Assembly: GCF_050320075.1 (NCBI RefSeq)
Contig: NZ_CP190018.1
DNA from: Escherichia coli
GTDB lineage: Bacteria > Pseudomonadota > Gammaproteobacteria > Enterobacterales > Enterobacteriaceae
Length of the DNA: 64,000 nucleotides
Strand: one strand, 5' to 3'
The notes under the pieces are model-generated. The model searched no databases and was not told where the DNA came from. It saw only the letters and a program-made list of their open reading frames with translations. The translations under genes and the position numbers were made by a program. This document shows, piece after piece, positions 3,443 through 25,610 of the stretch (position 1 is the first letter of the stretch; each line of letters starts with the position of its first letter).

Positions 3443-3458
3443 TTCGCGATCGCAAGGT

Positions 3459-3664
3459 AAAAAAAAGCACCGCAATTAGGCGGTGCTACATTAATCACTA
3501 TGGACAGACAGGGTAAATGTACAGGAAGTGAAAAAAGGTAGCTTTGCTACCATGGTCTGAATCGCAGACCAATTGCAAACACAACAACACAACATCACAA
3601 CCGTAAGCCAAAAGTTCACCAGAACACGCATTCCGATAAAACTTTTCGTTCCGGCTCAGGAAGT
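3459..3664 (-). ncRNA. gcvB: GcvB small regulatory RNA (Hfq-dependent, represses amino-acid and peptide transporters)
   Basis: Reverse complement begins ACTTCCTGAGCCGGAACGAAAAG and ends in hairpin GCACCGCCTAATTGCGGTGC plus T8; GU-rich stretch GTTGTGATGTTGTGTTGTTGTGTTTGC present; divergent from gcvA. Confidence 0.9.
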
Positions 3665-21833: not shown

Positions 21834-22200
21834 GTCGACAGGGAGTCAGACAACGAAGTGAACATCAGGATGATGACACTTCTGAAGGACACACCAGGAT
21901 GGTGTTTCAGGGAAAGGCTTCTGGATGAAGCGAAGAGGATGACGCAGGACGCGTTAAAGGACACCTCCAGGATGGAGAATGAGAACCGGTCAGGATGATT
22001 CGGTGGGTCAGGAAGGCCAGGGACACTTCAGGATGAAGTATCACATCGGGGTGGTGTGAGCAGGAAGCAATAGTTCAGGATGAACGATTGGCCGCAAGGC
22101 CAGAGGAAAAGTTGTCAAGGATGAGCAGGGAGCAACAAAAGTAGCTGGAATGCTGCGAAACGAACCGGGAGCACTGTGAATACAGTGCTCCCTTTTTTTA
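21834..22200 (+). ncRNA. csrB: CsrB sRNA (CsrA-sequestering)
   Basis: About 365 nt with reiterated CAGGATG/AGGATG/AGGA motifs (at least 8 exact AGGATG plus many GGA variants); ends in intrinsic terminator GGGAGCACTGTGAATACAGTGCTCCC plus T7 (22163-22199); 5' end approximate. Confidence 0.9.
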
Positions 22201-22244
22201 TTCCTGCTATCCTTCGCGGCAGTTTTTCTTATTGAGGTTGCTTT

Positions 22245-23373: not shown

Positions 23374-23823
23374 ATGGCGGAAATTGGTATTTTTGTCGGC
23401 ACTATGTACGGAAATTCGCTGTTAGTGGCGGAAGAAGCGGAAGCAATTCTGACCGCGCAGGGCCACAAAGCAACGGTATTTGAAGATCCTGAATTAAGCG
23501 ACTGGCTGCCCTATCAGGATAAGTATGTTCTGGTGGTTACGTCCACGACCGGGCAGGGCGACCTTCCTGATAGCATTGTGCCGCTCTTTCAGGGAATCAA
23601 AGATACCCTGGGCTTCCAGCCGAATCTGCGTTATGGCGTGATTGCGCTCGGCGACAGTAGTTATGTGAATTTCTGCAATGGTGGCAAACAGTTCGATGCC
23701 TTGTTGCAGGAACAGAGCGCTCAGCGGGTTGGCGAAATGCTGTTGATTGACGCCAGTGAGAACCCGGAACCGGAAACGGAATCAAATCCGTGGGTCGAAC
23801 ATTGGGGCACGCTGCTGTCCTGA
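23374..23823 (+). CDS. yqcA: flavodoxin-like FMN-binding protein
   Basis: 149-aa ORF recognised as YqcA; flavodoxin fold motifs. Confidence 0.88.
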
Positions 23824-24257
23824 TACGTTCAGCGAGCGGTAAATGCCGTTTTAGCGGTGCTGAATCGAATCTTTTCAGGCAAATGCCAGTAAAAACTGCT
23901 TCATAGCGCGGATTTTTACTGGCGTTTGCCTGGAGTCAAGCGATCCATTTCATACTCTTCTTTATTTCTTCGTTTTAACCCTTCCTTTCTTGTTCTTGTT
24001 TTCATTTCCGTGAAGTGGATTCCACCGTCCAGGGCTAATGCCAAAATCGGGCCTCATTGAACGCATTAATGTTGTGTTGTTGCACGGTGAGCCGCTATGG
24101 CGCGCTTTTTATACTGCTATTGCCAGATATAAACACGCGCCGTATTCGGCGAACGACCTATAAAAACGGCAAAAAACACCCTACGTCACCTCTGATTTCC
24201 TGGCGATGTCGCAGTCCAGAGTGAGCGTGGCTAACGCGAATTTTCAGGAGTGCAACA

Positions 24258-25610
24258 ATGAGTTCTTTAAGTCAGGCTGCGAGCAGTGTGGAAAAACGCA
24301 CAAATGCTCGTTACTGGATAGTGGTGATGTTGTTTATCGTCACATCCTTCAACTACGGCGACCGCGCTACGCTCTCTATCGCCGGTTCGGAAATGGCCAA
24401 AGATATCGGCCTTGATCCTGTGGGAATGGGCTATGTGTTCTCTGCTTTCTCATGGGCTTATGTTATCGGGCAGATCCCAGGTGGTTGGTTGCTGGATCGT
24501 TTTGGTTCAAAACGCGTCTACTTCTGGTCGATCTTTATCTGGTCGATGTTTACCTTGCTGCAAGGCTTCGTCGATATCTTTAGTGGATTCGGCATTATCG
24601 TTGCCCTGTTTACGCTGCGCTTCCTGGTCGGGCTTGCTGAAGCGCCATCTTTCCCCGGCAACAGTCGCATTGTTGCGGCCTGGTTTCCGGCGCAGGAAAG
24701 GGGAACGGCGGTGTCTATTTTTAACTCCGCTCAATACTTCGCAACGGTGATCTTCGCGCCGATTATGGGCTGGCTGACTCATGAAGTGGGCTGGTCACAC
24801 GTCTTCTTCTTTATGGGCGGTCTGGGCATTGTCATCAGCTTTTTCTGGCTGAAAGTCATCCACGAGCCAAATCAACATCCGGGTGTAAATCAGAAAGAGC
24901 TGGAGTACATCGCCGCGGGTGGCGCGCTGATCAATATGGATCAGCAAAACACCAAAGTTAAAGTACCGTTCAGCGTGAAGTGGGGGCAGATCAAACAGCT
25001 GCTAGGGTCACGGATGATGATCGGCGTTTATATCGGTCAGTACTGTATCAACGCCCTGACTTACTTCTTTATTACCTGGTTCCCGGTTTATCTGGTGCAG
25101 GCACGCGGGATGTCGATTCTGAAAGCGGGCTTTGTGGCTTCCGTTCCGGCGGTTTGCGGTTTTATCGGCGGTGTGCTGGGTGGGATTATTTCCGACTGGC
25201 TGATGCGCCGCACGGGATCGCTGAACATTGCGCGTAAAACACCGATCGTAATGGGCATGTTGCTGTCGATGGTGATGGTGTTCTGCAACTACGTCAACGT
25301 TGAGTGGATGATCATCGGCTTTATGGCGCTGGCCTTCTTCGGTAAGGGCATCGGGGCGCTGGGTTGGGCAGTAATGGCAGATACCGCGCCAAAAGAGATC
25401 AGCGGTCTTTCCGGTGGCCTGTTCAACATGTTCGGTAACATTTCTGGCATCGTCACGCCAATCGCAATTGGTTATATCGTTGGCACGACTGGCTCGTTTA
25501 ATGGGGCGCTGATTTATGTTGGTGTTCATGCCTTAATCGCGGTACTGAGCTACCTGGTGCTGGTGGGCGATATCAAGCGTATCGAGCTGAAACCTGTCGC
25601 GGGGCAATAA
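24258..25610 (+). CDS. gudP: D-glucarate/galactarate MFS transporter
   Basis: 450-aa polytopic ORF recognised as GudP. Confidence 0.9.

Follow-up and report, generated by a model that had tools for sequence, protein, structure and literature searches.

A long hairpin and pyrimidine-rich tract between yqcA and gudP of Escherichia coli: a candidate operator pair and spacer in the gudPXD control region

The genes yqcA (23374-23823) and gudP (24258-25610) of Escherichia coli are separated by a spacer of 434 nt (23824-24257) that holds a long hairpin and, downstream of it, a tract composed mostly of C and T. Do these two elements belong to an RNA, either a regulatory leader of gudP or a small RNA as a first-pass annotation had proposed, or do they work as DNA? 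The locus was analysed within a window of 64,000 nucleotides, the whole stretch of DNA considered here (contig NZ_CP190018.1 of assembly GCF_050320075.1). Our reading, to which we give a probability of about 0.55, is that the hairpin consists of two inverted regulon boxes derived from a divergent promoter, possibly reused as the 3'-end hairpin of yqcA, and that the tract is a fixed-length spacer in the control region of gudPXD. As to its kind, the region would then be an unannotated operator pair with the relic of a divergent promoter and a terminator-like stem, all of them elements of known kinds.

The hairpin arms and the sugar-diacid regulon box

The two arms of the hairpin (GGCAAATGCCAGTAAAAA at 23878-23895 and TTTTTACTGGCGTTTGCC at 23913-23930) most likely represent the operator box of sugar-diacid promoters in two inverted copies, judging from their match to the promoters of that regulon. 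The box has the core GCAWWTGC and an A/T-rich flank. The arms confirmed the nested inverted repeat that had been noticed at 23878-23930, and the pairing was found to continue outward to 23873-23935 (TTCAGG/CCTGGA) and inward to CTGC/GCGG. The parts of the hairpin are given below, with scores from a position weight matrix (PWM).

23873-23935, plus strand: extended hairpin of 26 pairs with an 8-nt loop, seen in fold energies and covariation.
23877-23895, minus strand: box 1 (5' arm), AGGCAAATGCCAGTAAAAA, with core GCAAATGC at 23879-23886; PWM score 16.6 bits, conserved across genera.
23913-23931, plus strand: box 2 (3' arm), TTTTTACTGGCGTTTGCCT, with core GCGTTTGC at 23922-23929; PWM score 13.9 bits in Escherichia.
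23896-23912, no strand: inner small hairpin CTGC-TTCATAGC-GCGG(A), between the A5 and T5 runs of the boxes.

The training set of the PWM consisted only of the 5'-arm box, in the 19 distinct versions that the cross-species alignment contained, and the threshold for the top 0.01% of the background was 12.0 bits. When the K-12 region upstream of cdaR was scanned, the single best match was TTTAGGCATTTGCACAAT with 14.8 bits (background frequency 5e-5). In the K-12 garP-garD spacer the two gar boxes were the two best matches, with 10.8 and 9.8 bits (background at most 3e-4). Within the gud spacer, matches of 16.6, 13.9 and 12.0 bits were found at 23877, 23920 and 24032, respectively. Comparable matches elsewhere in the window lay within open reading frames (ORFs) and had no -10 hexamer at 26 nt, and were therefore regarded as chance. 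Box 2, which is inverted relative to box 1 at a distance of 43 bp, scored at least 7 bits in 17 of 26 lineages. Inverted pairs with the A/T-rich flanks facing each other were formed by the gar boxes (131/173, 42 bp), by two gud elements downstream of the hairpin (24034/24076, 42 bp) and by the hairpin arms (23879/23922, 43 bp). A search with nhmmer of the whole conserved module around the hairpin against the K-12 gar and cdaR regions gave nothing significant, the short box alone being common to both. To our knowledge, the DNA site recognised by the glucarate/galactarate regulator has not yet been defined. The membership of the CdaR regulon follows product names and is reported in Monterrubio et al. 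2000.

The hairpin is also a strong structure when folded as RNA. The region 23855-23950 reached -45.5 kcal/mol as plus-strand RNA (z -6.8, matched by none of 200 shuffles) and -38.3 kcal/mol (z -6.3) as minus-strand RNA, and the 61-nt hairpin core reached -39.1 kcal/mol (z -10.4). A t/g position within the arms is a U.G wobble in the plus-strand RNA and a C.A mismatch in the minus-strand RNA, and because of G.U pairs the plus-strand fold was the more stable one, by 3-11 kcal/mol, in all six Escherichia compared. From the yqcA stop codon at 23823 to the gudP promoter, the hairpin at 23873-23935 was the only strong structure. Since a consensus scan found no other terminator-like site on the plus strand between yqcA and gudP in E. 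coli, the hairpin may well be the 3'-end structure of yqcC-truC-yqcA. Downstream of the full stem follows TGGAGTCAAGCG, which contains no U-tract. The first-pass annotation was right on this point for the full stem; a T5 run is, however, part of the 3' arm and directly follows the small inner stem (CTGC..GCGG-A-TTTTTAC). The inner hairpin together with the A5 and T5 runs resembles a bidirectional terminator.

These folds would suit an explanation in RNA alone, in which the hairpin is a terminator or a 3'-end-protecting stem of yqcC-truC-yqcA, the tract is a Rho-loading (rut) site and the likeness to the regulon box is incidental. We consider this unlikely, though it is the most serious of the competing explanations. 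It is favoured by the strength of the plus-strand fold and its excess over the minus-strand fold, and by the position of the hairpin as the only structure downstream of yqcA. The PWM, however, ties the arms to the cdaR and gar promoters, and the arm sequences were kept even where they cannot pair (Phytobacter, Kosakonia and Silvania).

As the first-pass annotation had suggested, conservation and covariation were analysed across Enterobacteriaceae, using 80 yqcA loci, one per species, in most of which gudP follows yqcA; conserved blocks were present in many genera. The very stable long hairpin was limited to Escherichia (z -6 to -11) and some Citrobacter, and Silvania, Kosakonia, Phytobacter and the Raoultella group kept the blocks without exceptional folding. 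An inner stem of unrelated sequence occupied the same place in many genera (CCTTTC/GAAAGG, CCGC/GCGG, CCCTTT/AAAGGG, CCCTGC/GCAGGG and CCCTC/GAGGG). In Citrobacter, the inner stem with its flanking A and T runs was called as terminator-like on both strands, which speaks for the explanation in RNA alone, as does the covariation of the arms and inner stem. When the alignment was threaded on the E. coli structure, 70% of the alignment cells could pair, compared with 67% in shuffles (none of 500 reached the observed value) and 29-48% with slid partners, although related sequences may exceed shuffles without any structure. Eleven pairs changed on both sides, most clearly pair 15:47 (CG 8, AU 7, UA 3) and the inner pairs 25:36 and 26:35.

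The hairpin is single-copy in the genome; the second place returned by BLAST was its own inverted match. A repeat of the REP or ERIC type was rejected, there being one locus per genome and no paralogous copies in E. coli.

The control region of gudP and the pyrimidine-rich tract

The hairpin and the tract are embedded in a conserved module that reaches to the putative promoter of gudP and contains the following features.

23934-23956, no strand: block 2, GTCAAGCGATCCATTTCATACTC (GTCAAGCGA..TTTCAYACTC), nearly invariant across genera.
23945-24009, plus strand: pyrimidine-rich tract, with the 38-nt spacer 23957-23994 as its core.
23999-24025, no strand: block 3, TTTTCATTTCCGTGAAGTGGATTCCAC, with a 14-nt core TTTCATTTCCGTGA that is invariant in 27 of 27 aligned module-bearing loci.
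24032-24047, plus strand: box 3, GGGCTAATGCCAAAAT, the -84 box of the gudP promoter, with its core at 24034-24041; PWM score 12.0 bits.
24074-24085, plus strand: promoter-proximal element GTGTTGTTGCAC, with its core at 24076-24083, 42 bp from box 3 and 26 nt from the -10 hexamer.
24110-24115, plus strand: TATACT, the putative gudP -10 hexamer, at least 95% identity over 58 loci.

Across the loci the spacer existed in three nested forms. The full form comprised CTGAATCG, 75-76 nt with the hairpin, GTCAAGCG, 74-75 nt with the tract, and CGTGAA with the core region; the shorter form began at GTCAAGCG and the shortest at CGTGAA. Block 3 marks the start of the part of the control region that was kept in nearly all gudP loci. 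The spacings between the blocks agreed within 1 nt in Escherichia, Citrobacter, Salmonella, Silvania, Kosakonia, Phytobacter, Superficieibacter and Atlantibacter while the sequence between the blocks differed, and in the Raoultella group diverged blocks kept the same spacing in the alignment. The module was present only where gudP follows yqcA and was missing from loci without an adjacent gudP, E. albertii included. This indicates that the module belongs to gudP and not to yqcA, which is a further point against an explanation in RNA alone, as is the separate yqcA terminator that most genera have upstream of the module. At the E. albertii locus (L016, 3448-3950), which has neither the module nor a gudP gene after yqcA, yqcA ends in a plain terminator hairpin, GCCCTCTGAT..CAGAGGGC.

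In the 58-locus alignment, TATACT and the upstream element TGTTGTGTT..TGCACGGTGAG were the best-conserved parts, and box 3 had a median PWM score of 12.0 bits with at least 7 bits in 56 loci. Local alignment showed CGCGCTnnTTATACT to be common to the gudP and garP upstream regions, and a promoter scan called the equivalent -10 hexamer in Citrobacter. The E. coli gudP, garP and cdaR promoters share an 8-nt core (GTTGTTGC or GCATTTGC), a distance of 26 nt and TATACT or TATGCT, and from this shared geometry we infer that gudP transcription starts near 24122. Relative to this start, the hairpin lies at about -250 to -186 and the tract at -177 to -113. Both would thus be upstream regulatory DNA rather than leader. 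The suggestion of a gudP regulatory leader was accordingly sound in its link to gudP regulation, given the occurrence of the module only beside gudP and the matching boxes, and failed as to the leader, the putative promoter lying downstream. Overall, the first-pass annotation was partly supported: it was right that the region is regulatory and linked to gudP and wrong in kind, the elements being, on our reading, DNA operators and a spacer.

A plus-strand small RNA or a long gudP leader is very improbable. A conserved CATACT/CACACT hexamer in block 2 looks like a -10 hexamer, and TTTCAY in block 2 could pair with GTGAA in block 3, a C-to-U change keeping a G.U pair. On the other hand, no -35 hexamer or box stood at a working distance from this hexamer (box 2 is at 21 nt, not 26), no promoter-terminator pair was seen on the plus strand, the tract was unstructured, and the gudP promoter is placed downstream. 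The Rfam scan of the spacer gave no match at E<=10 beyond chance-level ones with E>4. No ORF was conserved: the minus-strand ORF of 29 aa (MKTRTRKEGL...) retains only 3-25 aa in other lineages and as few as 10 aa among Escherichia, and the plus-strand ORF of 44 aa is not conserved, the plus-strand frames carrying stops. The small RNA proposed for this region was therefore not borne out.

The tract at 23945-24009 contains 37 T, 18 C, 7 A and 3 G, or 84.6% C/T, in good agreement with the roughly 80% reported before for about 65 nt. It is the sole 65-nt stretch of the window in which purines or pyrimidines make up at least 78% of one strand, and with a C/G ratio of 2.3-2.9 it ranks among the top 1%. 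Of the 35 lineages measured, 32 had 38-39 nt between blocks 2 and 3, two had 28 nt and one had 37 nt. No conserved sequence was found in this stretch across the lineages compared, but a plus-strand pyrimidine bias was kept, with a mean C/T content of 72% (C 12 vs G 5) and values of 84-87% in Escherichia, 72-85% in Citrobacter and Salmonella, 89% in Leclercia and 54% in Phytobacter. The fixed length argues for a spacing between protein sites.

As RNA, the tract had a minimum free energy of 0.0 kcal/mol, and the equivalent spacer in most lineages folded no better than shuffles (z -2.6 to +1.6). The same values led us to reject a further terminator that would end at TTTTCATTT and use the spacer as its stem, and they also speak against a small RNA or leader. 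Rho-dependent terminators have an unstructured stretch of about 70-80 nt with C>G downstream of the stop codon, and the tract agrees with this feature. The composition of the tract would suit the loading of Rho on read-through transcripts of yqcA, which may hold alongside its role as a spacer. The lack of structure and the excess of C over G (18 vs 3, top 1% for C/G) are also what an explanation in RNA alone would predict, but a rut site needs no fixed length of the spacer.

Other candidates for the spacer were rejected. The T-runs are about 12.5-13 nt apart and not 10.5 nt, which does not fit intrinsic curvature of the DNA, and neither a sigma-54 promoter nor any of several response-regulator motifs could be fitted by eye. 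With a CRP matrix built from Table 1 of Footprint-seq (site form TGTGA-N6-TCACA; training sites at least 9.8 bits), block 2 scored 2.7 bits in E. coli (TCATA) and 5-7.6 bits in other genera (AAGCGA-N6-TCACA), where it is weakly CRP-like; in E. coli it is too weak for a CRP site.

A proposed divergent promoter and its remains in Escherichia

On the minus strand, box 1 and box 2 take the positions of the -41 box and the -84 box, respectively, of a putative promoter pointing at yqcA. Two further features belong to this promoter in E. coli.

23848-23853, minus strand: TAAAAC, the damaged -10 hexamer of the divergent promoter, without the final T and 25 nt, not 26, from the core.
23859-23874, no strand: block 1, GCTGAATCGAATCTTT (ACTGAATCGAGTTAGC in other genera), conserved, within the spacer of the divergent promoter.

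A minus-strand -10-like hexamer was found in 16 of 20 non-Escherichia lineages, exactly 26 nt from the core of the 5' arm or, in two of these cases that have an indel, at 27 nt. Nine different hexamers occurred there (TACACT, TAGGAT, TAGAAT, TAAACT, CATAAT, TAAAAT, TATAAA, TATGAT and TAACAT). Averaged over all 26 sequences, the -10 score peaked only at that offset (+1.2 vs -1.8 to -9.6 elsewhere). Downstream on the minus strand, other genera have a conserved GGTCGTT(A)TTTT block and a GC-rich hairpin, CCCTCC..GGGAGGG, which adjoins the yqcA stop codon and is also the yqcA terminator. The unit was conserved in Salmonella (locus L022, about 3447-3560) and at loci L007, L023, L046, L050, L062, L065, L073 and L079, and an Rfam scan of the region in five other genera gave no family match. 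It could be an unannotated small or antisense RNA in these genera. Against the Cra (FruR) consensus gcTGAAtCGaTTCAgc, block 1 matched at 12 of 16 positions in E. coli (15 such sites per 64 kb) and at 13 of 16 in other genera (2 such sites), and this Cra-like match is a lead rather than a finding.

From these comparisons we tentatively propose that an unannotated promoter stands back-to-back with that of gudP in many Enterobacteriaceae, among them Salmonella, Citrobacter, the Raoultella/Klebsiella group, Kosakonia, Phytobacter, Silvania and Superficieibacter, a proposal we hold with distinctly less confidence than the reading of the hairpin itself. Such a promoter would have a sugar-diacid box and possibly a Cra-like site, and its product would be either a yqcA antisense RNA or a short minus-strand RNA of conserved sequence (GGUCGUUAUUUU...) that stops at the yqcA terminator hairpin or reads through it. 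The E. coli hairpin would be its operator pair, fossil or working.

Other sequences were noted at this place. A REP-like palindrome has replaced the -10 hexamer of the divergent promoter in C. koseri, and REP-like palindromes (GCCGGGTnAGGCG..CCCGGC) lie between yqcA and the gudP region in several genera (L009, L010, L025 and other loci). A consensus scan had returned the minus-strand sigma-70 promoter TTGACT-16-AAAAAT, which was rejected, its -10 hexamer being unconserved in Phytobacter, Kosakonia and the Klebsiella group.

In E. coli, no -10 hexamer with A at position 2 and T at position 6 stands 26 nt from the core, and a second inverted box is present 42-43 bp upstream. All six Escherichia have TAAAAC at 25 nt, and all six lack about 50 nt, the GC-rich hairpin and the GGTCGTT block among them. 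In five of the six Escherichia species the 3' arm has changed from GGCRTTTTCA to GGCGTTTGCC, which raises the box score to 13.9 bits and makes the arms fully complementary.

Could the divergent promoter still be active in E. coli, so that glucarate or galactarate elicits an antisense RNA over the 3' end of yqcA and the arms are working operators? Both boxes score very high and are kept in all six Escherichia species, TAAAAC retains the key A at position 2, and conservation in other genera is clear. The final T is lacking from every Escherichia hexamer, however, the spacing is 25 nt and not 26, and the transcribed block with its GC-rich hairpin has been deleted, so that we regard present activity as improbable. 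More doubtful still is the opposite view that nothing here has a present function, the palindrome being a neutral remnant of an inactive promoter and the tract having arisen by slippage. The damaged hexamer and deleted downstream unit would fit this view, as would a tandem duplication inside the tract (TTCTTG at 23987-23998), which hints that slippage helped shape the tract. Yet 5,425 of the 5,426 complete E. coli genomes contain the spacer, 5,343 of them with at least 99% identity, and both arms were kept. No other genus reaches the box score of the Escherichia 3' arm (13.9 bits in five of the six species), and a bias toward pyrimidines is seen again, in different sequences, in Citrobacter, Salmonella and Leclercia.

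If the hairpin is an operator pair, as we prefer, the region would lie in the distal half of the gudPXD control region and act mainly as DNA. Its two arms would supply the upstream half of another gudP/garP-class promoter, directed toward yqcA and probably kept in most Enterobacteriaceae that bear the module. In Escherichia this promoter would have lost its -10 hexamer to damage, and its short transcribed unit, together with the GC-rich yqcA terminator, to deletion. The inner stem of variable sequence and the A/T runs of the boxes may form a bidirectional terminator-like element, and the fully complementary arms would let a read-through transcript of yqcA fold as one long hairpin. This hairpin would most likely form or protect the 3' end of yqcC-truC-yqcA and shield the gudP promoter from read-through. 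The tract would be the fixed-length spacer (38-39 bp) between two presumed protein-binding blocks, possibly with Rho loading in addition.

Several points weigh against this reading. The ligand of the box is probably CdaR, an assignment drawn from the presence of the box at gudP, garP and cdaR, and the promoter-proximal gudP element matched the PWM poorly (2.8 bits). The compensatory changes in the arms (15:47) are unexpected for two independent protein sites and suggest that pairing has been under some selection. By consensus criteria the hairpin does not qualify as a canonical intrinsic terminator, since its inner stem in E. coli has only 4 pairs (CTGC/GCGG), on which the consensus terminator scan made no call, and no U-run comes right after the full stem. 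Finally, the supplements of Adams et al. 2021, the table of Rho regions included, contain no yqcA, no gudP and no number starting with 29223 or 29224, the prefixes of the K-12 coordinates that span the hairpin and the tract; their silence also speaks against an explanation in RNA alone and against a small RNA.

Annotation of the locus and comparison with known systems

On the plus strand of the window, csrB, yqcC and truC precede yqcA, and gudX follows gudP. The small RNA gene csrB (21843-22202; Rfam RF00018, 382.9 bits) lies two genes upstream and was at the equivalent place in five of five other genera scanned. The K-12 counterpart of the spacer lies between b2789 and b2790. Neither the K-12 RefSeq record nor the E. 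coli records listed have any annotation in the spacer, which bears out the earlier description of the 434-bp region as unannotated. No paper was found in the literature naming yqcA together with gudP or with a terminator, and the TERMITe and SMRT-Cappable-seq supplements have no entry for the locus. The spacer in the window differs from that of K-12 at two bases only, 23846 and 23826. The first of these (C in the window, T in K-12) is inside a weak fourth box-like site, GGTAAATGCCG (5.2 bits), and this site is thus not fixed within E. coli. Among the loci compared, a record titled Chryseobacterium sp. 18061 (L054) has a yqcA-gudP locus of the Enterobacteriaceae type (YqcA 79% and GudP 91% identity) and is probably mislabelled or contaminated.

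The pathway of glucarate and galactarate matters for the growth of E. coli and Salmonella in the inflamed or antibiotic-treated gut. For gudP, garP and cdaR the comparison offers a testable box, a promoter geometry (core, 26 nt, -10 hexamer) and a rule of paired boxes (42-43 bp), and the putative gudP promoter at 24032-24115 suggests a working definition of the regulon operator. The conserved divergent promoter of other genera is covered by no annotation or Rfam family. The locus also suggests a route by which two protein sites in inverted orientation may give rise to a conspicuous hairpin that looks like RNA and is later put to use at the end of a transcript. In genome scans, long hairpins in spacers beside regulated operons may accordingly be operator pairs.

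The closest known system is the garP-garD region, which has the same box (GCAWWTGC core and A/T flank) in two inverted copies 42 bp apart, with the proximal core 26 nt from a TATACT -10 hexamer. In contrast to the present locus, the leftward gar promoter drives garPLRK, whereas the promoter described here faces the end of yqcA and, in E. coli, has been damaged. The DNA between the gar boxes is AT-rich and stemless, and the gar arms are too little complementary for a long hairpin. With the distal operator pairs of ara (O2/I1), gal (OE/OI) and deo, the locus shares extra boxes 100-250 bp upstream at fixed spacing to the proximal sites, but the distal pair here has a promoter anatomy of its own, and looping or cooperativity would be by analogy only.

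Bidirectional intrinsic terminators have a similar order of A5, small stem and T5 after a gene, and the Citrobacter version of the hairpin was called on both strands. They differ from the E. coli hairpin, in which the inner stem has 4 pairs, the pairing runs at least 13 bp past the A/T runs with no U-tail, and the outer arms are conserved as sequence. Rho-dependent terminators with a 3'-end-protecting stem-loop lacking a U-tract are reported by Dar and Sorek 2018. The likeness lies in a stable stem without a U-tail followed by about 65-80 nt of unstructured sequence in which C far outnumbers G, while a spacer length fixed across genera is not a property of rut sites. REP/BIME and ERIC elements are likewise imperfect palindromes in the 3' flank of a gene, but the present hairpin is single-copy and unrelated to them in sequence.

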